Shown piece after piece: positions 536 through 10,938 of a stretch of 10,938 nt of DNA. Both the position numbers and the translations under genes were made by a program. A model generated the notes under the pieces. The model saw only the letters and a program-made list of their open reading frames with translations. It had not been told where the DNA came from and ran no database searches. The DNA is from Candidatus Heimdallarchaeota archaeon (GTDB lineage Archaea > Asgardarchaeota > Heimdallarchaeia > Heimdallarchaeales > Heimdallarchaeaceae): contig JAAFKJ010000110.1 in the NCBI GenBank assembly GCA_021399395.1, positions 1 to 10,938 on the forward strand, read 5' to 3'. Every line of letters begins with the position of its first letter. Positions within the stretch are counted from its first letter, which is position 1.

Positions 536-541
536 ACGTTG

Positions 542-619
542 GAATCCCTCAAGGGATTCTCTGATCATGCAGGGCCTGTTTTAGGCCTTGTTATGACCAA
601 TCTGACTTCGAAAGAAGTC
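542..619 (+). other. 16S 3' trailer with three consecutive hairpins
   Basis: GAATCCC-TCAA-GGGATTC (542-559); TCATGCAGGGCCT-GTTTT-AGGCCTTGTTATGA (565-596, long stem with wobbles and a bulge); GACTTC-GAAA-GAAGTC (604-619, GNRA loop). Confidence 0.7.
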
Positions 620-686
620 CCCTTATTCTCTTCATTCTTCTATGGACGAAGATGTCTCGGGGTTCCTGTATTCTTTGGAGGTTTTT
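620..686 (+). repeat. 67-bp direct repeat, copy 1 (identical to copy 3)
   Basis: CCCTTATTCTCTTCATTCTTCTATGGACGAAGATGTCTCGGGGTTCCTGTATTCTTTGGAGGTTTTT matches 8941-9007 base for base. Confidence 0.95.
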
Positions 687-706
687 GATTTCACTTAGAT
701 AGACTA

Positions 707-3700
707 TCAGAAGAAATAATTCTTCATTAATTCAAATTCCCTAAGCCAATTTTCTTCTAACCATCTCCTTAAATCTGAGATTTTGGTACAAGATGTTTTA
801 TTCTTCTGTAAAATTAAATCATATATTGAAGCATTAAGAATATCAATAATATTACGTATCTTATAATTATAAAATGGATAATACTTCCAATCTTCCTTAT
901 GTCTTATTAATCCTGTTTGAGTAACAGTAACTCTTGCTAGTTTGTAAGAATTATTTCTTTTGTCAAGAAGCAACGTAGAAATTTCATCAACTGCTATTTC
1001 TTTCTTGGAACAAGCTTCAATGAAAGCCTCGTCTGAGAGGATTCTAGTAATCACAAAATCTTCTTGTCGTTTCCACCATTCAAGAAACATCATAATTATA
1101 GAAATACTTGGAATTTTACCACTAGATCCGGATGGAATTGGAAGATTATTAGTTTTCAACCAATTGTACCAAGATTTAGAGATCTTACTCATAGTATTTC
1201 CTTTTTGAGTGAATGAGAAATATCTATAATTCGAATCCCATCTAAATGGGAAGTTAAGTAAAATATCATCGTCTTCGAGTTGAATACCTACGGTTTTTGA
1301 AGATGAAATTAGATCAACAACTCGGTTATTATTATCTATTAATAGTACTCCTGTTTTTGGTTTTGTATCTCTTCTAAAGGAGTAAGTTGGAGGTTTATAG
1401 ATTTCTTCTGTATCTTGATTGAGAAGAAAGAAATCAAATCCTTCACTCTGATAGATCTCAGTTGCTAAAGTAAATGGATCATCTTCATCTTCGAGGAAAA
1501 CCTCAAAATTTGTTAATAAGGAGGCTAATTTTGAAAATAGAGAATTCTTTTCCTTCTCCCCCAATATCTCTTTGAGTTTTTTATTGGTAAGAAAATCAAA
1601 AGTAATAACTTGTACTACATCATAAAAATAAGAAATTCCACGTTGATTTACAGGTTGTTCATCTAGTCTATCCATTTTAGAAAGAAAATCTGATGAAGTG
1701 ATGGTATCAAGCCCTAAATGGCACCTACCACCATACAGGATACTAAGGAGGTCCAATAATTCTGAGTTTAATAGACTCAAGATGAATTCTCTTTTCAAAC
1801 TAGCGTATCGAATAAGAATCTTATTAATTGATTCGTCTTGGGAAAACTGATTATGGTTTATTAATAAATTCAAGTGTTTGTGTACAGGGTCTGTTACTTC
1901 TTTAAAACCATTAAGACTTAACATAATTTTACCTTGTTTAATCTGAAAACTTGGTAAGAAGAAATCATGTGATATATCTATCTGTTTACCTTGTACCGTT
2001 ATTTTTACATTAGATTCTAGATGTGTTTTCTTAGAATTGTCAGAAAATCGAATAGCATGACCATTTTGTGCTAGACCCACCAATCGACTAAATTCTGAAA
2101 TTCCTTTTACAATTTGCCTTTTTTGTTTAACTGATAACATTCCTTGAGAGATTAAGTATGAAAGGGCATTAAGGAAATCACCGTTGAAGAATTTAATTAA
2201 CCAATCATTTCCAATAAGATGATATTGTCTGTTTCTATCATTGAATAATTTCTTAATAAACAATGGAACTTCTTTCTTTCCCAAATATGAAGGAATTGGA
2301 AAAAGAGATTCTATAATAGGGGTTTGTGTTAAATACTGAAAAAGTTGTTTCTTATTCAATTCTCTACGTTTTAAATGGTATCCAAATTTTGGGACATATT
2401 CCCAAGGATAATAAGTAGCATGATCACCTATTTTATAGTCCAAAAAAGTTATTTTGAACAATCCCTTTTCTTTCATTTCAAAAACAATATCATCAAAACC
2501 ATTATGAGCATCTGATATTTCATCATAAAATCCTCTCAGTAGATTAGTAGAACTATTCCTTTGAAAGATATCCTCTTGAACATGTATCTTCTTCCAGGCT
2601 CTCTGTAAAAACTCTCTTTCCGCATTTGTGAGAACTACACTCTTCACCCCTTTTCCTCTTTTTATGAAATTTAAATATACTTCTGCTTCCTTTTCTGTCA
2701 GTTTATTTGCATACTCTAATGTTTTCTTCTTCTCTTCTTCCGTTTCCCCCACTATCTCATCATACATCTCCTGAAATCTCTCAGATACAGACAGTTTCTC
2801 TTGTGTACTTTCCTTCATCTCTACCTTCTTTTCTTTAGTATCATATTTATCTGGAACAATTTTTTCTTTTAGGACCTTCTTTTCTGTTGTTAGTTTCCTG
2901 TTCTTTACATACACTCTTGAAATCGGATAATATGTCCCCAATTCAGGTACCTCTTCATGTAATTGTTGCAAGATCTTATCTGTAGTTTCTACGGGTATGT
3001 TTGCTAGTTCTGCTATTCTAGATGCAGGAGTCTGGATCTCAATTTGGGCTTGATTATTAGTTTCTTGTTCAAGTTTGTGAATGATTACCTCTCGCACCCG
3101 TTCTTTCTGCTTAGAAGTTACCACTTCTTTTCTCCATTTATCCCTAGTTCGAACATTTGCTTCAATAGCTTGGTGGATAGTTTTCCAGTTGGTCAGATAA
3201 GCTCCTCCATCAAAGAATGTCTCGGAAGTAATTCGTTCTTCCTTAGCATAGATCTTAGCTAACTCTTTTGATGGCTTGATCATCAAACCAAGAAAGAAAG
3301 GAGAGATGAAACCAAGGAGTAGAGTAAAGTCTTGACTACCGAGAATTAATGTTATATTAAGACTTAGAAGGAAAAAGGCTATAGGGACCATAAAAACTAC
3401 AATCAACACTCTTACTCGTTTGTAGTTATCTTCGAGAAAAGTCATCTCAGATGTAAATTGAAAGAGATAGAGGAAAGTTAGAGAAAAAACACCTATGCTA
3501 GCATAAAGTAGCAAGTAGATAGTTAAAGCAAGCTCTGGTAGATTAGAAAATAGGTTGAGTACTGGGTTTATCGCAGATATTTTCTTAGAAGCGAATAATA
3601 GGATAAGGAAGTTTGTTCCTGATACAATTAGAGCAAAGAGAATTAGACGAAACTTGAACTTCTTCTTTTTAATCCTAGTTTTATAATAATTGCTAAATTT

Positions 3701-3841
3701 AGAAAACAGGCACAAGATGGAATCTACATCAGCAAAGAATAACTTGATTTTACCACCTAGTTTCTTGAAAGAAAACAGACGAATGTCTGAATAGAATATA
3801 GTAAGCCAGATTACAATAGAGAAAATATTTGCAAAGATCAT
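707..3841 (-). CDS. Large hypothetical membrane protein: about 5-6 N-terminal TM helices, a charged/coiled region, a putative winged-helix (PCI-like) module and a large uncharacterised C-terminal cytoplasmic region; possibly the 3' part of a gene fused with 3838-5712
   Basis: 1044-codon ORF with hydrophobic segments in the first ~190 aa. An HTH-like segment SRIAELANIPVETTDKILQQL...GTYYPISRVYVK lies at ~aa 272-314. ATGA overlap with the upstream ORF at 3838-3841. Confidence 0.85.
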   Translation of the reverse strand: MIFANIFSIVIWLTIFYSDIRLFSFKKLGGKIKLFFADVDSILCLFSKFSNYYKTRIKKKKFKFRLILFALIVSGTNFLILLFASKKISAINPVLNLFSNLPELALTIYLLLYASIGVFSLTFLYLFQFTSEMTFLEDNYKRVRVLIVVFMVPIAFFLLSLNITLILGSQDFTLLLGFISPFFLGLMIKPSKELAKIYAKEERITSETFFDGGAYLTNWKTIHQAIEANVRTRDKWRKEVVTSKQKERVREVIIHKLEQETNNQAQIEIQTPASRIAELANIPVETTDKILQQLHEEVPELGTYYPISRVYVKNRKLTTEKKVLKEKIVPDKYDTKEKKVEMKESTQEKLSVSERFQEMYDEIVGETEEEKKKTLEYANKLTEKEAEVYLNFIKRGKGVKSVVLTNAEREFLQRAWKKIHVQEDIFQRNSSTNLLRGFYDEISDAHNGFDDIVFEMKEKGLFKITFLDYKIGDHATYYPWEYVPKFGYHLKRRELNKKQLFQYLTQTPIIESLFPIPSYLGKKEVPLFIKKLFNDRNRQYHLIGNDWLIKFFNGDFLNALSYLISQGMLSVKQKRQIVKGISEFSRLVGLAQNGHAIRFSDNSKKTHLESNVKITVQGKQIDISHDFFLPSFQIKQGKIMLSLNGFKEVTDPVHKHLNLLINHNQFSQDESINKILIRYASLKREFILSLLNSELLDLLSILYGGRCHLGLDTITSSDFLSKMDRLDEQPVNQRGISYFYDVVQVITFDFLTNKKLKEILGEKEKNSLFSKLASLLTNFEVFLEDEDDPFTLATEIYQSEGFDFFLLNQDTEEIYKPPTYSFRRDTKPKTGVLLIDNNNRVVDLISSSKTVGIQLEDDDILLNFPFRWDSNYRYFSFTQKGNTMSKISKSWYNWLKTNNLPIPSGSSGKIPSISIIMMFLEWWKRQEDFVITRILSDEAFIEACSKKEIAVDEISTLLLDKRNNSYKLARVTVTQTGLIRHKEDWKYYPFYNYKIRNIIDILNASIYDLILQKNKTSCTKISDLRRWLEENWLREFELMKNYFF

Positions 3842-5712
3842 TGCAATCCACGGTGAAATATCGAAGATAGATATAAGTGAATTAAGACCATAACTCGTAG
3901 ATAGAGCAATAACTGTAGCAAAAATAAGACGAATATTACATCTTTATCTTGCATCCTTTCAGAGGAATGCTCAGTAGAACTTGATGAAGCTCTTTGTTTT
4001 CTTTTATCTCTATATGTTTTTTTGTTGAAGAACCAAAAGAAGATGCAAACATATATCGCTAACATCCAGCTGGTAGAAAGTGGGGGAGTGGAGGTATGAG
4101 AGGAATCTCCTTCTACTGGTGGTTGAGTTATGGTTGCCTGATACTTAAGCTGCTGAATAGTAACAGGTGTATTTAGTTCATAGAAACCAAAAATAATCTT
4201 GATCTCATGGTAACCTTGTGCCAATTCAAAAGACTTGCTCAGATTTGCGAACCCAAGTTCATCTACTTCTTGAGTAAGTTGAGTAGTTCCATTAATCTTC
4301 ACTATAACGTCCAGCCTATCGAAGGGGTGCTCATAAGTGGAGGATAGAACAAAGTTTATAGCTAAGTTAACATAGGAAGAAGCGGTAGAAGTTCGAAATA
4401 CACTATAATAACTCAAGGAATAGAACATTGGTTGAGGATTAGCTGTTTCTTCTTCAGAGAGGAGAATGTCTAAGGAATTATCTTCGAGTTCCAAAATCGT
4501 GATTGCATCTATCCTACTAGAGTGCAAGATGATGAACTCCCCCGTACCTGTAGCAGAACCATGGATGGTAAATGAGAGTTCTTCATGGTATTCAGTTGTA
4601 AAAGTACGAATAACCAAACTATTCAGTTCATGAGATTGTTCTGAATAATCAAGTTGTCCTTCCTCTAGAATTGTTGAACCACTGCTCAAGAAGTAGGTTA
4701 GATAAGGGAAGATTTTCATCCCTAAGCATTGGTAATCAATAATCATATAGAGCACTTGATCTGAAAAGTACTTGGAAGGTTTAAGGGAGGAAAGATCAAA
4801 AGAATAGGTAAACTCATTTCCATCCCATTGAAAAGAATCTAGGACACTTTCCTCAAGAAAAGAACCAACTAATGAACCTTCTAAACTAATATCATTGATT
4901 TTTATGATTTCATAGGATACACTTACAGAGAAGTTAACATTTAGTAGATTAAAACCTGTATCAGGATCAATCATAAATTCCATAGAATTGGTTTTATTGG
5001 AGGTAAAACTCTTTTCTGCTACTAGTTTGTTATTAAGAGATACATAGACTACTCTGTCAAAAGATTGGAAATAGTTAGTAGTAAAGGAAAGTGAGAGATT
5101 CAGCAAAACTGTATCATTGTAATTATAGAATGCAGTAGATACTTGTCTTGATTCCCAATAATTTATTGTACCTTCAAAAGATAACCAATCTGGATAAACG
5201 GGAAGAATAGAATTTTCTTCATTCAGAACGGGGATATCTATCTTCTCGATTGTTGTTTCAAGGATGGTTAAAAAACCTACAGAACTAGAAGATTGACCAC
5301 TGCAAATCACATAAACATCTATATTACCAGCATAGGATGTAAAAAGAGTAAATGTCTCAGTTAAATTGTGAATTGTCCCATCCTGAAATAGCGTATCAAT
5401 AATGAATTCAGTAGAAGAGTTGTCGAAAATAAAAGTAACATTCAACCCATCTTGTGTGCTTGTTGTTCCGTTTACCATGAACAAGAGGTCTATTTTGTTA
5501 ATTCTATCTAGTTCAACATAATCAAAGTGTAGAAGAAATATCTTTTTCTGAAATGTGTTGTTGAAAGTAAAAAACAGTTCTTCTGAGGTAGAAAAAATTT
5601 TACGTTCATCCTGAGTGGGATCACAAGAGGATACATTGGTGTAAGTAGGAAAGATGCTACTAACTAAACAAACTAACAGAACTATCTTGATGTACCTGGA
5701 ATTGACTTTCAC
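3838..5712 (-). CDS. Secreted/cell-surface protein: signal peptide, about four beta-rich domains (internal duplication), Pro/Ser/Thr linker, TM helix and basic stop-transfer segment
   Basis: 624-codon ORF with GTG start. N-terminus MKVNSRYIKIVLLVCLVSSIFP is signal-like. Many N-x-S/T sequons. QPPVEGDSSHTSTPP linker, then WMLAIYVCIFFWFF-NKKTYRDKRKQR. Confidence 0.85.
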   Translation of the reverse strand: MKVNSRYIKIVLLVCLVSSIFPTYTNVSSCDPTQDERKIFSTSEELFFTFNNTFQKKIFLLHFDYVELDRINKIDLLFMVNGTTSTQDGLNVTFIFDNSSTEFIIDTLFQDGTIHNLTETFTLFTSYAGNIDVYVICSGQSSSSVGFLTILETTIEKIDIPVLNEENSILPVYPDWLSFEGTINYWESRQVSTAFYNYNDTVLLNLSLSFTTNYFQSFDRVVYVSLNNKLVAEKSFTSNKTNSMEFMIDPDTGFNLLNVNFSVSVSYEIIKINDISLEGSLVGSFLEESVLDSFQWDGNEFTYSFDLSSLKPSKYFSDQVLYMIIDYQCLGMKIFPYLTYFLSSGSTILEEGQLDYSEQSHELNSLVIRTFTTEYHEELSFTIHGSATGTGEFIILHSSRIDAITILELEDNSLDILLSEEETANPQPMFYSLSYYSVFRTSTASSYVNLAINFVLSSTYEHPFDRLDVIVKINGTTQLTQEVDELGFANLSKSFELAQGYHEIKIIFGFYELNTPVTIQQLKYQATITQPPVEGDSSHTSTPPLSTSWMLAIYVCIFFWFFNKKTYRDKRKQRASSSSTEHSSERMQDKDVIFVLFLLQLLLYLRVMVLIHLYLSSIFHRGLQ

Positions 5713-5732
5713 TTGCTTAATCTATAATGCTT

Positions 5733-5746
5733 AAATTCATTTAAAT
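5733..5746 (-). promoter_or_regulatory. Putative archaeal TATA box for 3838-5712 (near-leaderless)
   Basis: Minus-strand ATTTAAATGAATTT about 21-34 nt upstream of the GTG. The same 13-mer occurs upstream of the S9 gene. Confidence 0.5.
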
Positions 5747-5784
5747 ACGTGGTAAAATGATTAAGAGACTAAATTTCTTTTTGG

Positions 5785-5792
5785 TTTTTATA
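5785..5792 (+). promoter_or_regulatory. Putative TATA box for 5822-7000
   Basis: TTTTTATA about 30 nt upstream of the ATG at 5822, in the divergent intergenic region. Confidence 0.4.
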
Positions 5793-5821
5793 GAATATTG
5801 CAGTATTTTTATTGAAAGAGA

Positions 5822-7000
5822 ATGAGATTCTCAAAATATAGATTATTATTCCTAATCTCGATTACTGTTTTGCTTTTCAGTACAGTCAAGTATATTCATA
5901 CTAACAATAGAATTGACCCGGGGTCTATTCTACAACTTAATCTATTTGATTTAGAGGAACACGAACCAATAACGATTAGTACAAATGAGGATTTTCTCTC
6001 CTTCCCTGGCTCTGGAACTCTGGAAGATCCATATTTGTTTGAAAACTATAACATTACTTCTGACTACCCTTTTGGTATTCGCATAAGTTCGACTACCAAA
6101 CATTTTCTTATCAAAAATTGCTTTATTGATGTAACACTAACAGGCATCTTAATTGAAGACATTTTTGAAGGATCAGTAAGGATTGAAAATAATATAATAA
6201 CAGATAGTGATTATGAGAATGGAAAGGGAGTAGTAATATATTTTGCAACAGAGGTTGTTTTAGAGGAGAATGTTATTTGCAACCATAAAACATATGGACT
6301 CGTTATAGCAGGGGCAAATGCTTGTTACATTGTTAGGAACTCCTTTTCGAATAATGGTAAAACAGGAATGGCAACAGCATATGTTAATATATTGGGGATT
6401 TTCGAAAATGAATGCAATGAGAATGAAAACGGAGGGATGTATGTTTTTGAATCAGATTTAGCAATAATCAAGGAAAATGATTGCTCAAGTAATGGCGAGG
6501 AGGGGCTGCTCCTAGAGCAAATAGAGGGGTGTGTTGTTCAAAATAACACTATAGAAAGAAATAGAATATGGGGGATGAGAATGAAAGGAGCAGAAGGGAG
6601 TTTGTTAAACTATAATTTATTCAGAGATAATGAAGAGAGAGGATTGTATCTTGATGAAAATAGTAACAGAAATTGGATATATCAAAATGATTTCATAAAT
6701 AGCAGTAGAACAGGTTACTCACAAGGGAAAGATGAGGGGGAGGAGAATCGTTGGTGTGACGAGTTTATGAAAACAGGGAATTTTTGGGATGATCTTGGAG
6801 ATGAATTGGAATACACATTAGATGGAGATTCAAATTCAGTAGATTTATACCCATTAAGGCAAGGAAACGTTATACAAACTCAGCTGATTAATGAAACGAA
6901 TTTACTAAGCATTCCTTGTACAATTGGGTTTATGCTAATTGTTTTTGTTTTAACAGTGAAGAAGAAAATCCCACAACCCTTATTCTCTACTCTTCTATAG
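5822..7000 (+). CDS. Membrane-anchored right-handed parallel beta-helix (PbH1 / NosD-like) surface protein
   Basis: N-terminal hydrophobic signal; PITI...FPGSGTLEDPYLFENYNIT motif; ~22-residue repeats of the type GxxIxxxxxxxIxxNxxxxN; GNFWDD and DLYPL C-terminal motifs; C-terminal TM helix followed by KKK. The stop TAG (6998-7000) lies inside repeat copy 2. Confidence 0.9.
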   Translation: MRFSKYRLLFLISITVLLFSTVKYIHTNNRIDPGSILQLNLFDLEEHEPITISTNEDFLSFPGSGTLEDPYLFENYNITSDYPFGIRISSTTKHFLIKNCFIDVTLTGILIEDIFEGSVRIENNIITDSDYENGKGVVIYFATEVVLEENVICNHKTYGLVIAGANACYIVRNSFSNNGKTGMATAYVNILGIFENECNENENGGMYVFESDLAIIKENDCSSNGEEGLLLEQIEGCVVQNNTIERNRIWGMRMKGAEGSLLNYNLFRDNEERGLYLDENSNRNWIYQNDFINSSRTGYSQGKDEGEENRWCDEFMKTGNFWDDLGDELEYTLDGDSNSVDLYPLRQGNVIQTQLINETNLLSIPCTIGFMLIVFVLTVKKKIPQPLFSTLL

Positions 7001-7043
7001 ATGAAGATAGTCTCGGGGTTCCTGTATTCTTTGGGGGCTTTTT
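6977..7043 (+). repeat. 67-bp direct repeat, copy 2 (diverged variant)
   Basis: CCCTTATTCTCTACTCTTCTATAGATGAAGATAGTCTCGGGGTTCCTGTATTCTTTGGGGGCTTTTT differs from copies 1/3 by about 4 substitutions and 3 small indels. The GTCTCGGGGTTCCTGTATTCTTTGG block is identical. Confidence 0.92.
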
Positions 7044-7074
7044 ACTTTCTCACCATTTCTTCCTTCTTTACATA

Positions 7075-8871
7075 TTATAGATATTTCATAAAGAATTCCA
7101 GTATCATTTTATCAGTTCTTAACCTAGCCTCTTGTCCTACAGTCATATGACCTTCTTTTCCAATCTCAAAATACTCGAAGTCCACTCCTTCTTTCTTATC
7201 TAACTGAATTAATTTATCTCTAAATTGTCTTGATTCACCAATCGTGCAACGTGGATCATTAACAGCTTGAATCATTAAAATTGGTGCTTGAATATGTTCT
7301 ACGAAATTTAATGGGCTTCTATCTTCCCATAATTCTTTATTCTCTTCATATGTTCCAAACAAACCTTCTATCCAATTTTTATAAGCTGGCATTCCTGCAT
7401 CGTACATTGTTTTCCAACTTGTTATTCCTACGTAAGCTGCACCTGCATTCCAACCTGCATCTGCATACTTAGTCAATTGAAGGTAAGTCATATATCCTCC
7501 ATAAGAACCACCGAAAATACCAATCCTATTCATATCAACATATTCAAGAGATTCAAGATATTTTTTTGAATAAATATAATCTTTTGCATCTCCTCCCCCT
7601 ATATCAAAATTAATCAAATCCCTAAACTCTTTCCCATAACCAAATGATCCTCTAATATGGGGGGAAATCAAGACAAATCCTTGATTAACTGCTGCTTGTG
7701 CAAAATCATAAAAATCCCATTGAAGTCTTCCTCCAGGACCGCCTGGTGCTAAAACTAGAGCAGGATATTTTTTTCCTCTTTCTATATCAGGTTTATAGAC
7801 AACTGCTCCTATCTTTCTATTATCAAATGTAGTATAATGAATAAATTCAGGTTCATAAAAATCTTCTTTCACATATTCAGAATCAGGAATTACAATTGGA
7901 ATTTCAACATTTTTCGTTAAATCATATAGTGCCAGGACATTAGGTATTTGTGGATCAGAACGACTATAAAAAAGATATCTGTCTTTTCCTGCAAATTGTG
8001 CTCTACGAATTACACCAGGAATTTTTGGAATAAACTCTTCTTTAGTTTCAATGTTATAAATAACGGGATAAGATCTAACAGCTTCATCTCTTATAACCAA
8101 CAATTTACTTTTATCTTTACTAATTTGCATACCACGTTCTTGAAGCTGATCTCCGCCAAACCAACTGAGTTGATTAGTTTTAGTATTGTATATTAAAGTT
8201 TGATCTGCTCCTCTTGCATTTGTGCAGATAAGTAATAATTCTCCATCTTTTGACTTACCATAAATATAATCTAGTGAATCATTAGAGAGATGTAATAATT
8301 GTTTATTGTTTGAACCATCAGAGTGGACCATCCAAATATCAATGTTTCTTCTATTTTCTGTTGCTATTGCAGAATAATAAATGATGTTTTGTGAGGTCCA
8401 TACACCTCCTAAAGAGGGAGAATCATGAAAAGTTAGTTGGGTAAGTTCTTTTGTTTCTATATTCAGTTTAAAAAGATTATCAGTTTTATTTCTATTTGAA
8501 CGTATTAAGATGTATTTATTGTCAGGACTAATATCAGCTAATAATCCCTTATTATTTGGAGTATCAGTTAGTTTTATTTCCTTATTCTTTTCAAAATCAT
8601 ATAAATGAATATTAAATTGCTCATTACCCTCGTTATCTCTGTTTATTAACAGTTTCTTATTTTTTTCCAACCAAAGAAAGGGATTTAGATAGCCTAAACT
8701 CAAATTTTCATGAAATGGCTTATAAGAAAAATCTTCAAGGTTAACTTCAAAAGCTTTGTCTGGTCCCTCTATGTCACTAAAGAACCAAAGATCATCGTGT
8801 CTATTGAAATAAGCATGCTGTATAAAATAAGGAAATTTGACCATCTTTTCAAGTTCTAATTTCTTTCTCAT
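7075..8871 (-). CDS. S9 family serine peptidase (prolyl oligopeptidase / acylaminoacyl peptidase-like): beta-propeller plus alpha/beta hydrolase
   Basis: Nucleophile elbow GGSYGG; PALVLAPGGPG; RGSFGYGKEF; catalytic Asp in NDPRC and His in EGH; N-terminal WD/TolB-like blades (ISPDNKYILI). No signal peptide. Confidence 0.95.
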   Translation of the reverse strand: MRKKLELEKMVKFPYFIQHAYFNRHDDLWFFSDIEGPDKAFEVNLEDFSYKPFHENLSLGYLNPFLWLEKNKKLLINRDNEGNEQFNIHLYDFEKNKEIKLTDTPNNKGLLADISPDNKYILIRSNRNKTDNLFKLNIETKELTQLTFHDSPSLGGVWTSQNIIYYSAIATENRRNIDIWMVHSDGSNNKQLLHLSNDSLDYIYGKSKDGELLLICTNARGADQTLIYNTKTNQLSWFGGDQLQERGMQISKDKSKLLVIRDEAVRSYPVIYNIETKEEFIPKIPGVIRRAQFAGKDRYLFYSRSDPQIPNVLALYDLTKNVEIPIVIPDSEYVKEDFYEPEFIHYTTFDNRKIGAVVYKPDIERGKKYPALVLAPGGPGGRLQWDFYDFAQAAVNQGFVLISPHIRGSFGYGKEFRDLINFDIGGGDAKDYIYSKKYLESLEYVDMNRIGIFGGSYGGYMTYLQLTKYADAGWNAGAAYVGITSWKTMYDAGMPAYKNWIEGLFGTYEENKELWEDRSPLNFVEHIQAPILMIQAVNDPRCTIGESRQFRDKLIQLDKKEGVDFEYFEIGKEGHMTVGQEARLRTDKMILEFFMKYL

Positions 8872-8886
8872 AAAGAGTAAGTTAGA

Positions 8887-8900
8887 AAATTCATTTAAAA
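8887..8900 (-). promoter_or_regulatory. Putative archaeal TATA box for the S9 peptidase gene (near-leaderless)
   Basis: Minus-strand TTTTAAATGAATTT 16-29 nt upstream of the ATG at 8871. Confidence 0.5.
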
Positions 8901-8940
8901 CATTTATGTCAAAAAAGGTAAAATATCTCTTTCTTTAACT

Positions 8941-9007
8941 CCCTTATTCTCTTCATTCTTCTATGGACGAAGATGTCTCGGGGTTCCTGTATTCTTTGGA
9001 GGTTTTT
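8941..9007 (+). repeat. 67-bp direct repeat, copy 3 (identical to copy 1)
   Basis: Exact match to 620-686. Confidence 0.95.
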
Positions 9008-9093
9008 AGTTTACAGTTAATATTTGTATCACCTGTAATGCCCTGTTGTCTTTCTTCTTTGAACAATTTCCGTCGTCTATCTATTCATACTTA

Positions 9094-9292
9094 TCTTACC
9101 ACACACATCATATTACGTGGTAAGACTACTTCTGGTCTTATCGAGCTTCGAAGAGGTTTATTCCGAGCTTACAAAAATAATACATAGATACTACAGACCT
9201 GGAGTCTGTAAGAAGGATTTCAACTATACTGTTTGTCATCTTCTTCCTTGAGGGGTTTTAATAGTTTACTTCTACTATAATGGTAACCCTTT
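9094..9292. ncRNA. Candidate structured non-coding RNA / leader (cluster of hairpins)
   Basis: Inverted repeats: TCTTACCAC/GTGGTAAGA (9094-9125), TAAGACTA/TGGTCTTA (9121-9140), GAGCTTC/GAGGTTT (9143-9159), TACAGAC/GTCTGTA (9192-9210), GAGGGGTT/AACCCTTT (9250-9292). No family recognised. Confidence 0.3.
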
Positions 9293-9309
9293 CCAACGAG
9301 TGAATAACA

Positions 9310-9381
9310 ATGTACAAGGAAAAATATGATCCAGAAGACGGAGACGAGAGTATAACTCCACCATTATGGTGCCCTGCTTAA
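9310..9381 (+). CDS. Putative small peptide MYKEKYDPEDGDESITPPLWCPA (23 aa)
   Basis: ATG at 9310 to TAA at 9381; purine-rich, coding-like composition; followed by a pyrimidine/T tract (9382-9406). Confidence 0.3.
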   Translation: MYKEKYDPEDGDESITPPLWCPA

Positions 9382-9438
9382 CCTCTCTTCTCTCACTTCT
9401 ATTTTTAAGAGAATTCATAACATATAGTGTTTCTCGAG

Positions 9439-9446
9439 TTTATAAA
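9439..9446 (+). promoter_or_regulatory. Putative TATA box for the 9470 ORF
   Basis: TTTATAAA(TGAA) about 24 nt upstream of the ATG at 9470. Confidence 0.55.
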
Positions 9447-9469
9447 TGAAAGTGCTGATTAAAAGGTAG

Positions 9470-10938
9470 ATGAGTTATTTCAAAGAAATAAAGAAGAAGA
9501 TGCTTATTGTCAAAAGCAAAGAAGATTTGAGAGAATTGTTAAATATTTTGAAGGTAATATCATCAAACCATAAAGACAAATTAATTCTTGAAATTATTGA
9601 CAAAGCTCTTCAGAAATCTAGAATGCTAAATGACGTAAATTCGGAAATAATTTTATTGGGTCTCAAAATAGCTCAAATCTATCATTTTAAGGAAAATAAG
9701 CAGCTGTGTTTTGATCTTCTACAAAAAATGAAATTATGTTCAGAAATTTCCAACAACATGAACGGATTAGCTTTCTCTCATATGTTTGAGTGGTTACTAG
9801 AAAGAATTGCAGGCAACAAAGAAAGGAGCTCATGTGCAATTCAAATGGCAATATCAATTCTAGAGAATAATGGGGAGTATGATCAGTACATAATAAACAT
9901 GTGTTATTATTCTTATGCTCTAGAACTCTGGTTAGAACATCATGATTTTTCCGCTATTTCAATTCTTGAAGATTGTATAAAATACTTTTACACTAATGGG
10001 TTTTATCGGAGTTTAGCTCAATCTCTAAGTATTCTGAGTGTAATCTATGTAAGAATGCAATCACATGAAAGTGTATTAAAACTCAGTGGGGAAATGTATA
10101 GTAAGAAGTATGTTTTTGAAAAACTACCCAGAGACATACAAGCCATATTACACTATTTCACAGGCTTAGGATTTATGCTTGAAATGAAACTTGATCATGC
10201 TGAAACATGGTTTGAGGAATCTTATAATGTTCTCAAACCCATATACAAAAAAAGCATATATTTCAGCAATTATCTGACTCTTCACTCCTATATTGTTACT
10301 GTAAAAGCTCTTCAAGGTAAACTTGAACAAACTCGGGAGATGATAAGTGATGTTGAAAACCTCCTTCAAGAGGAGTTCTTTCAAAAGAATCTTGATTCAG
10401 AAACAAAGAAGCAAATACATCATACACTCAATCTAAACAAGTTTTATGTTTATTCACGTTCGAAGAACTTTGATACTGAAAAGATGTGTGAATTGATAAC
10501 AGAAATATTCGAGGGGAGTAAAACACTTTACAGTGATTTTATGCTCCTAAGTGAGTTTGTTCTTAATGCAAATCTCAAACCAAATAAATTGAGGGAACTA
10601 CTGAAAGCAGATAATTTCAGCACAAATAGGATTAAGCATCTAATTTCCTTCGTTCTTCTTGCTAAGAATGAAGAGAATCTTTCAAAGAAGAATCTATTGA
10701 ATAGAATAAAGGCTTTAGAGAAGGGAGAGCAAACTAGTAAAACTTCTTTTATTGAGTATGTATTAACAGATTTGCTAATTGCTCAGCAATTGTACTCACT
10801 CAGGAGATTCGCAGAAATCTCCATTCTATTAAGAAAATACGAGAAGAAACTTGATCGAATTCAAGTTCTCGAATTGCGACTCTTCATGGAAGCTTTCATC
10901 CAAGTTGGAGCTTACAAGAATGGTGATCCGTTGGGACC
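9470..10938 (+). CDS. All-alpha TPR-like helical repeat protein, 3'-truncated by the window edge (at least 489 aa)
   Basis: Hand translation gives MSYFKEIKKKMLIVKSKEDLRELL... open to the end of the window (...QVGAYKNGDPLG). TPR-like helices include SLAQSLSILSVIYVRMQSHE and AILHYFTGLGFMLEMKLDHAETWFEESY. Absent from the ORF track because it has no stop in the window. Confidence 0.85.
   Translation, partial: MSYFKEIKKKMLIVKSKEDLRELLNILKVISSNHKDKLILEIIDKALQKSRMLNDVNSEIILLGLKIAQIYHFKENKQLCFDLLQKMKLCSEISNNMNGLAFSHMFEWLLERIAGNKERSSCAIQMAISILENNGEYDQYIINMCYYSYALELWLEHHDFSAISILEDCIKYFYTNGFYRSLAQSLSILSVIYVRMQSHESVLKLSGEMYSKKYVFEKLPRDIQAILHYFTGLGFMLEMKLDHAETWFEESYNVLKPIYKKSIYFSNYLTLHSYIVTVKALQGKLEQTREMISDVENLLQEEFFQKNLDSETKKQIHHTLNLNKFYVYSRSKNFDTEKMCELITEIFEGSKTLYSDFMLLSEFVLNANLKPNKLRELLKADNFSTNRIKHLISFVLLAKNEENLSKKNLLNRIKALEKGEQTSKTSFIEYVLTDLLIAQQLYSLRRFAEISILLRKYEKKLDRIQVLELRLFMEAFIQVGAYKNGDPLG

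Follow-up and report, generated by a model that had tools for sequence, protein, structure and literature searches.

Direct copies of a predicted pre-16S rRNA trailer strand border gene blocks in the 16S-23S spacer of a Heimdallarchaeial genus

Introduction

Leader-trailer helices flanking the 16S rRNA are reported to be ubiquitous in archaea (Gemler et al., 2024, PMC11404451; here and below, statements on the cited papers refer to excerpts of them). Unlinked rRNA genes have been described in Asgard archaea, including Heimdallarchaeota, in a paper that also mentions degeneration of the processing stem in organisms whose rRNA genes are unlinked and discusses unlinking as relevant to the origins of eukaryotes (Juttner and Ferreira-Cerca, 2022, PMC8997704). 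In Ca. Heimdallarchaeum, the HeimM2 element adjoins the 16S gene (Wu et al., 2022, PMC8813620). The present analysis concerns the DNA downstream of a 16S gene in a Candidatus Heimdallarchaeota metagenome-assembled genome (MAG; 2.8 Mb in 201 contigs, 82% complete, 34% G+C), labelled G000, with its relatives labelled G001, G004, G006 and so on. The stretch analyzed (the window) is an entire contig of this MAG, C9, of 10,938 bp, and it carries three copies of a 67-bp direct repeat.

Integron cassette arrays comprise attI, attC and IntI. A preliminary description of the window had likened the repeats and the genes between them to such an array, or to repeated insertion at an att site, and had named dispersed elements of the repetitive extragenic palindrome or miniature inverted-repeat type (REP/MITE) as an alternative. 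Our results suggest a different origin. Copy 1 is predicted to be the trailer strand of the pre-16S leader-trailer helix, and copies 2 and 3, together with two more on the next contigs, would be duplicates of the 16S 3'-flank module, some with the last 12 to ~50 nt of the 16S and the first trailer hairpin. These copies mark the borders between blocks of accessory genes that, in a single Heimdallarchaeial genus, have come to fill the 16S-23S spacer.

Results

A repeat search of the window returned a 72-nt pair at 620-691 and 8941-9012 (97% identical) and a 38-nt core present three times, at 654-691, 7010-7047 and 8975-9012. As described earlier, the three copies share one orientation, all on the plus strand, at spacings of 6357 and 1964 bp. 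A BLAST search of the 67-mer against the 2.8-Mb assembly gave five matches at E<=0.001, namely C9:620-686 (100%), C9:8941-9007 (100%), C9:6977-7042 (88%), C22:253-319 (100%) and C6:3982-3916 (99%), and a short-word BLAST of the assembly gave no further match longer than 18 nt. An exact 67-mer repeat in 2.8 Mb cannot have arisen by chance. The window begins within the 16S rRNA gene, the 3' third of which occupies 1-535 on the plus strand (Rfam RF01959, 404 bits, model positions 979-1478) and is 98.5% identical to the 16S of G001. It is followed by a long-form trailer with three hairpins (536-619, plus strand; hairpins at 541-559, 562-599 and 604-619), recognized by sequence and fold (z -3.6 for 545-691). 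The long form also adjoins the 16S in G010 and G014, and in G001 it is placed behind a TPR gene instead. Copy 1 (R1, 620-686, plus strand) starts 85 nt past the 16S 3' end at 535, directly after the hairpin GACTTCGAAAGAAGTC (604-619), which agrees with its earlier placement at the base of the last trailer hairpin, and it ends in T5 (682-686). Copy 2 (R2, 6977-7043, plus strand), 88% identical to R1 and likewise ending in T5 (7039-7043), was found by the repeat search and BLAST; the octamer TCCCACAA (6969-6976) directly 5' of it is a remnant of a short-form trailer. Copy 3 (R3, 8941-9007, plus strand) matches R1 at 67 of 67 positions, confirming the identity claimed for this pair, ends in T5 and forms the first unit boundary of an array of peptide/TPR genes. 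A pseudo-16S 3' end is absent before R2 and R3 of the window.

The five copies belong to a single locus. The last 83 nt of C9 equal the first 83 nt of C22, and the last 83 nt of C22 equal the end of C6 (exact overlaps). The rRNA ends of this genome were located by BLAST with a relative's rRNA locus as the query, and the far end of C6 gave an 87% alignment to the region upstream of the G001 23S gene, reaching 46 nt into the 23S. The contig overlaps and the end of C6 in the 23S thus place all five copies, co-oriented, in one 16S-23S spacer, which measures ~16.8 kb, assuming a single occurrence of C22. The order is 16S, R1, a giant membrane protein gene (minus strand) and a NosD-like gene (plus strand), R2, an S9 peptidase gene (minus strand), R3, a peptide gene and TPR1, R4, peptide genes and TPR2, R5, a peptide gene and TPR3, a cytidine deaminase gene (minus strand), and the 23S. 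In G001 and G014, the 16S-copies-23S order is visible on single contigs. A misassembly in the window is unlikely, because the contig-end overlaps (83 nt) exceed the 72-nt shared stretch and because the layouts recur in independent contigs: this is the case for the order 16S, repeat, giant gene (minus strand), NosD-like gene (plus strand), repeat, and the adjacency of R2 and the S9 gene recurs in G006. R2 was also bridged by Logan contigs of three of the four DNA runs (X4, X5 and X6). Logan contigs (k=31, four DNA runs) break at identical copies, and R1 and R3 are therefore beyond their reach. No junction of a circle or a deletion was seen, although contigs that break in this way could not have shown one. 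Joints reported in Logan contigs inside the 16S gene were rejected, being derived from the 16S of other organisms. In practical terms, assembly of these MAGs from short reads breaks up at the rRNA locus because of the repeats.

The nature of copy 1 emerged from relatives with a complete 16S gene. In G001, G010 and G014, the repeat core is found once in inverted form, ~150 nt upstream of the 16S 5' end. When folded together, the repeat and the stretch ~95-190 nt upstream of the 16S form an interrupted helix of ~60 bp that takes in all 67 nt. Leaders were located in 14 of the 25 genomes of the genus. In all 10 genomes with both a leader and a 16S-adjacent copy, duplex energies ranged from -62 to -79 kcal/mol, whereas dinucleotide shuffles (100 per genome) averaged about -30 kcal/mol (z -8.4 to -13), and pairing a leader with a repeat from the other clade was 10-25 kcal/mol weaker. 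The outer helix, which accounts for 26 of the 40 column pairs, has one clean compensatory swap (leader C/repeat G in seven genomes, U/A in three). The inner half offers up to six further compensatory pairs, a count that depends on the alignment, and differs almost wholly between clades with complementarity retained. In true 16S contexts the repeat core keeps a conserved position 72-136 nt past the 16S end, and the leader strand occurs once per locus, inverted, against three to seven direct copies. Based on the leader complementarity, the energies and the compensatory changes in these relatives, we conclude that copy 1 is, by prediction from sequence, the 3' or trailer strand in the leader-trailer (processing) helix of the 16S precursor, followed by oligo-T; in 10 relatives, the orthologous copies pair with the leader. 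Oligo-T runs are the kind of signal that ends archaeal transcripts. The repeat was earlier taken for a dedicated att site, an assignment that this role replaces.

Several other identities were considered for the repeat and rejected. A coding repeat was dismissed on reading the sequence, as an ORF (open reading frame) end overlaps R2 only and the stops differ between copies. No Rfam family was found for the repeat or for 8872-9480, with only chance-level matches (E>1), and no C/D or H/ACA small RNA boxes were seen on inspection by eye. ARAGORN found no tRNA, and the repeat is therefore not a tRNA-fragment att site.

Multiplication of the trailer strand is a feature of the genus. Of the 24 other genomes of the genus, 21 had the repeat (E<=0.1), whereas none of the 12 genomes of family f3 did and families f2 and f4 gave only weak short matches; in other Heimdall families (G030, G025, G027), the 16S trailer was unrepeated in the 4-18 kb downstream. 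Our catalogue contains 50 direct copies from 14 genomes, with one orientation per contig, which is that of the 16S wherever a 16S is on the contig. This clustered, co-oriented distribution downstream of the 16S, together with the confinement of five of five copies in the present genome to one locus and one orientation, refutes the REP/MITE alternative. A run of at least five T on the sense strand follows 46 of the 50 copies, from which termination is predicted; the run is missing after the other four, and some cores are degenerate. The copies occur in nested forms with a common 3' end. The largest form contains a trailer hairpin and a pseudo-16S 3' end (GGATCACCTCCT with no more than one mismatch; in G017, as many as ~50 nt of 16S), the second a hairpin remnant only (R2, R5), and the third the repeat only (R3), while the fourth is a ~30-nt core located 14-19 nt behind TPR stop codons (G002, G005, G009, G010, G018, G023). 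Secondary copies located behind protein genes have such a pseudo-16S 3' end, scored as the 12-mer with one mismatch allowed, in front of them in at least six genomes (C22 of this genome, two in G001, and G014, G023, G017 and G018).

Metagenome contigs show the same architecture. Six of 27 metagenome pattern stretches were judged to be chance matches from a G+C of 0.45-0.64 alone, and seven of nine inspected genome-collection stretches not labelled Heimdall were chance matches without repeat-like flanks. Contigs labelled Woesearchaeota and Thorarchaeota (L046, L068) carry the genus-specific repeat with matching flanks and are probably mis-binned or mislabelled Heimdall contigs. The true 16S 3' end varies as well. 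A ~32-nt hairpin insertion between CCTGCGGA and GGATCACCTCCT was observed in L039 (G001), L041 (G010), L075 (G017 C159) and L049 (G018), and may be an expansion segment or a mini-intron; the 16S of the window is without it. In G017, contigs C171 and C159 hold two true-looking 16S 3' ends, with and without the insertion and with short and long trailers, a pattern that points to a MAG with either two copies of the 16S or a mixture of two strains.

The gene blocks between the copies differ in age and content. As had been noted, the copies sit at gene-block boundaries, and across the contigs of the genus the blocks differ between relatives. In the first block (block A), crude hydropathy predicts signal or membrane segments for each of three ORFs, in line with the block's description as a set of surface or membrane genes. 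Two of them, at 707-3841 (1044 aa) and 3838-5712 (624 aa) on the minus strand, have no Pfam family, and the ESM Atlas gave no usable match for either of these large proteins. In relatives (G014, metagenome contigs) they correspond to one membrane-protein ORF of 1647-1698 aa. Within 3838-3943 of the window, one extra A after 3931 in Logan contigs of runs X4 and X5 joins the two into a 1671-aa frame. What splits them is a 1-nt indel within a run of A, which is either a genuine frameshift or a mistake of the assembly. The third ORF (5822-7000, plus strand) codes for a NosD/beta-helix surface protein (Pfam Beta_helix 6.7e-25, NosD 2.2e-24) with a signal peptide and a C-terminal anchor by hydropathy; its last 8 codons extend into R2, and the same overlap with the repeat is found in G017. 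Block A is common to G014, G023 and G017-like contigs at 39-66% aa identity and is absent behind the 16S in G001, G004, G009 and G010; in G001, G009 and G010 the 16S and the repeat lead directly into peptide/TPR genes. At such identities between species, block A is old and vertically inherited and therefore no recent cargo.

The second block consists of one gene between R2 and R3, at 7075-8871 on the minus strand, which codes for a member of the S9 prolyl-oligopeptidase family (Pfam Peptidase_S9, E 1.3e-38), as reported before. Its orthologues (72-85% identity) are repeat-flanked in G006 and stand in two different repeat-free contexts in G014 and G008, where homology ends within 45 nt of the gene. 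After the NosD-repeat junction, G000 has the S9 gene at the place that a 636-aa ORF takes in G017-like contigs.

Most spacer units consist of one to three ~20-codon ORFs (M..YDPxxGDxxxxPPxWxP) and then a ~530-aa TPR protein. In the window, the alignment of six paralogous upstream regions delimits a TATA-like box, TTTTAATAG (9256-9264), and a 23-codon ORF, MYKEKYDPEDGDESITPPLWCPA (9310-9381), both on the plus strand; the ORF region has a third-position substitution pattern in the six-paralogue alignment, and about 40 of 43 motif-selected small ORFs in 12 genomes fit YDPxxGDxxxxPPxWxP. The first of the three tandem TPR genes (9470-10936, plus strand) continues into C22, as shown by the ORF list and the contig overlap. 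An AlphaFold2 model of its paralogue TPR3 is all-helical with a pLDDT (predicted local distance difference test) of 88.5, and its Foldseek matches are TPR proteins, so that the ~530-aa protein of the array is, by this model, a TPR solenoid. A DNA_ligase_A_M assignment of the 9470 ORF (E 5e-4, below the cut-off) was dropped in its favor, and a PDB sequence search with the TPR protein gave no match. The TPR family numbers 173 matches, almost all in Heimdall MAGs, and the peptide/TPR module, with its own TATA-like box, is lineage-specific, occurring in the window, in C22, C6, C126, C170 and C21, and in 11 related genomes.

Each module is accompanied by a conserved hairpin, TCTTACCAC and GTGGTAAGA around a variable loop, whether or not a 16S-trailer repeat is present. 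In the window it lies at 9084-9115 (plus strand, TCTTACCAC-N14-GTGGTAAGA); it follows R3, R4 and R5, and the TPR paralogues of C126 and C170, which lack the repeat, have it downstream as well. Its role may be that of a terminator or of an operator. Because the modules on C126 and C170, outside the spacer, keep this hairpin without the repeat, the repeat itself belongs to the locus and not to the peptide/TPR module. Downstream of the last TPR gene on C6 there is a decayed small peptide gene (C6 ~1190-1240, minus strand), conserved in G001, which contains the leader-like 12-mer TCACCTCCAAGG by chance; the 12-mer (C6 ~1217) was rejected as a pseudo-leader, since it aligns to this gene.

Further blocks in relatives contain an alpha/beta hydrolase (G010), a STAND NTPase, a Schlafen AlbA_2 protein and a 348-aa ORF (G004). 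The novel-STAND NTPase and Schlafen AlbA_2 genes are located at L043:3190-6378 (G014) and L044:5146-6132 (G023). STAND NTPase and Schlafen AlbA_2 families often occur in conflict or defence systems. The 16S-23S spacer may thus be a small defence or accessory island.

Discussion

The extra copies resemble copy 1 of their own genome. Identity of the 5' half is 60% within genomes and 37% between them, and that of the ~26-bp core is 93% within and 89% between. At position 10 of the core, which is A or G, the variant matches the genome's own leader and not the phylogeny of the adjacent gene, as the TPR genes of 'A-leader' genomes fall in at least three separate places in the TPR tree (four changes, three of which are forced by the starred branches). 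Given the higher similarity within genomes and a core variant that follows the leader, the copies evidently evolve in concert with copy 1 and the leader. Two further patterns may be read as traces of recombination. Trailers of the long and the short form have changed places between the true and the pseudo position in G000 and G001, and TPR1 and TPR2 share an exact 56-nt stretch near their 3' ends, yet are only 73-76% identical at the DNA level.

Concerted change might also reflect a function of the copies as RNA elements that pair in trans with the single 16S leader, or that recruit EndA through the helix or Nob1 through the pseudo-16S 3' end, coupling the cassettes to ribosome biogenesis. Copies do track the leader variant of their genome across TPR lineages that predate the change in the leader, their boundaries coincide with the helix strand, and the short copies retain exactly the ~30 nt that pair with the outer leader part (-40 to -51 kcal/mol). 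In pseudo positions, the 12-mer GGATCACCTCCT is kept within one mismatch next to decayed preceding sequence. However, the G001 copies differ and pair less well (-64.6 and -70.0 vs -78.4 kcal/mol), and a copy G opposite a leader U would still pair, so that pairing alone does not force the observed A. The four copies without a T-run and the degenerate cores also speak against this explanation, which we consider unlikely. An extended form of it would have the extra copies as anti-leader RNA modules on accessory-gene transcripts, some mimicking the 16S 3' end, that pair with the leader or are cut by rRNA-maturation enzymes, with the DNA array as a recombinase-free, rDNA-anchored cassette platform. 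This form is doubtful. If it were true, ribosome production and a variable defence-like gene island would be wired together, and an essential, genus-conserved rRNA flank would serve as a landing pad.

Eukaryotic rDNA spacers carry repeated terminator elements, and by comparison the ~26-bp core could be bound as DNA by a protein (for instance a factor that acts in termination, as an insulator or as a fork barrier), the core being present once in inverted form upstream and several times downstream of the 16S. Such a site would fit the high identity of the core between genomes and the upstream inverted copy, which shares 19-20 of 23 positions, and a change in protein specificity would also shift all sites together. 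However, the repeat's 5' half and the leader co-vary in the manner of RNA helices, with clade-specific sequences, the differences between leader site and repeat are of the G-U type, as expected for RNA pairing, and no candidate protein is known. A protein site is thus a very unlikely explanation.

The preliminary description had favored an integron-like or att system, in which a recombinase encoded elsewhere inserts gene-plus-repeat circles beside the 16S and duplicates the site each time. Much of the architecture resembles such a system. Every spacer block, on either strand, is bracketed by co-oriented copies, single-gene blocks exist (S9 here, the 348-aa ORF in G004, the alpha/beta hydrolase in G010), and the S9 orthologue occurs in three different genomic contexts. 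Moreover, pseudo 3' ends of an RNA gene at the distal border resemble attL/attR at tRNA genes, and a mobile element beside the single 16S gene of Ca. Heimdallarchaeum is reported in the excerpted text of Wu et al. (2022, PMC8813620). The enzymatic part of the proposal fared differently. The window lacks a recombinase gene, as had been stated, with no recombinase family among its six ORFs in Pfam, and no PF00589 (Phage_integrase, tyrosine recombinase) match was obtained in the 82%-complete genome. No recombinase Pfam domain was found in 20 different array-encoded proteins scanned, a set that includes the six window ORFs, TPR3, a non-array TPR paralogue, the deaminase and 10 ORFs of relatives (one of them non-array), some thus lying outside arrays. 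The repeat has no attC-like self-structure (z +0.25 for the plus-strand fold and -1.9 for the minus strand, vs shuffles), and none of seven pattern matches on viral contigs had repeat-like flanks (chance matches). The left boundaries vary from a full 16S end to a hairpin remnant, the repeat only or the 30-nt core only, and duplication with decay therefore fits better than one fixed crossover point. The antiquity and vertical descent of block A argue against recent insertion as well. What stands of the proposal is an array of variable, repeat-bracketed blocks; the att or integron mechanism found no support, and we regard it as hardly probable. The absence of a recognizable recombinase and the genus-wide architecture are counted as established.

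Because no recombinase, no attC-like fold and no repeat on viral contigs were found, we favor homologous recombination between duplicated 16S-flank modules as the probable mechanism; these modules may double as transcript-end or insulator elements. The array would grow, shrink and be reshuffled by unequal crossing-over, gene conversion, and loop-out and re-insertion, for which no dedicated site-specific recombinase would be needed. Recombination would also keep the copies like copy 1, which itself would be held by pairing with the leader. In their position between blocks and beside a very strong promoter, the extra copies would most likely serve to end transcripts or to insulate, a predicted role.

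Several points weigh against this interpretation. In the minimum free energy duplexes, an asymmetric internal loop and a short central helix lie between the outer and inner stems, and a canonical 3-4-3 bulge-helix-bulge motif is not evident. The leader and the 5' part of the 16S fall outside this assembly, and the pairing of the exact copies is thus deduced from relatives. Conversion over 30-67 nt across species whose neighboring proteins are 40-66% identical is not an obvious expectation, and selection on the extra copies, through RNA pairing or protein binding, would better explain the sharp, helix-sized boundaries; it is for these boundaries, and for the persistence of the copies over long times, that our interpretation accounts least well. 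As for termination, R3 has no co-directional gene upstream to terminate, and the repeat cannot be the own terminator of the minus-strand blocks (S9, giant gene). Homologous recombination alone also does not account for how the S9 gene, coming from a locus without repeats, gained repeats on its flanks. Finally, a recombinase could be missing, since the genome is 82% complete, or be of an unrecognized kind, as four array proteins are without a family.

The locus offers a concrete, testable model of spacer invasion by accessory gene blocks. It also prompts one to ask if elements duplicated from an rRNA flank find new use as terminators, processing signals or regulators.

Among known systems, the peptide/TPR modules recall the RRNPP (Rap/NprR/PlcR) peptide-receptor pairs, in that a TPR solenoid gene adjoins conserved ~20-codon ORFs, and Rap proteins are among the many Foldseek TPR matches (template modeling score to target 0.56-0.60). 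However, the peptides here have no signal sequence and look cytosolic, no sequence-family match was obtained, and the best structural matches of the TPR protein are generic eukaryote-type TPR scaffolds. The peptide-receptor relation is putative. Integrons are similar in having co-oriented repeats that bracket short blocks downstream of a fixed anchor, with content that varies among relatives. In our comparison of the 16S-downstream locus, for example, peptide/TPR genes follow directly in some genomes and the membrane block in others. Unlike integrons, the present array has no IntI that could be found and no attC-type folded palindrome, its cassettes lie on both strands with their own promoters, and its repeat is a predicted functional rRNA-flank sequence.

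The attL/attR duplications that integrative elements produce at tRNA and tmRNA 3' ends are similar in that the 3' end and flank of an RNA gene are duplicated at the far side of inserted DNA. The HeimM2 element (excerpts of PMC8813620) is similar in that another genus of Heimdall archaea has a site of insertion at the 16S 3' flank. In contrast to these elements, no integrase or homing endonuclease was recognized in the blocks of our locus, the copies are nested and variably truncated, and the blocks are in part ancient.

Another close system is the leader-trailer helix that flanks the 16S rRNA in bacteria and archaea. Copy 1 lies in the 16S trailer, and its counterpart in relatives pairs over ~60 bp with covariation, which makes it an ordinary member of the kind of helix described in the excerpted parts of PMC11404451. 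The difference is that the trailer strand is here present in three to seven direct copies over 8-17 kb, with a single leader strand. In the excerpts of the literature searched, multiple trailer-strand copies bracketing gene blocks are not described, the supplements of PMC8997704 (processing-stem figure and rRNA organisation tables), which are possibly relevant, being outside the search; within these sources, it is such copies that appear to be new. As in the unlinked Asgard rRNA genes treated in the excerpts of PMC8997704, protein-coding genes separate the 16S and the 23S. However, order and strand are kept in the genus studied here, the two genes stand 8-17 kb apart, and the blocks between them are punctuated by 16S-flank copies. 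The genus thus shows an intermediate state of 16S/23S unlinking, in which a path of unlinking is visible, and its predicted processing stem is long and strong, in contrast to the degeneration mentioned in those excerpts.

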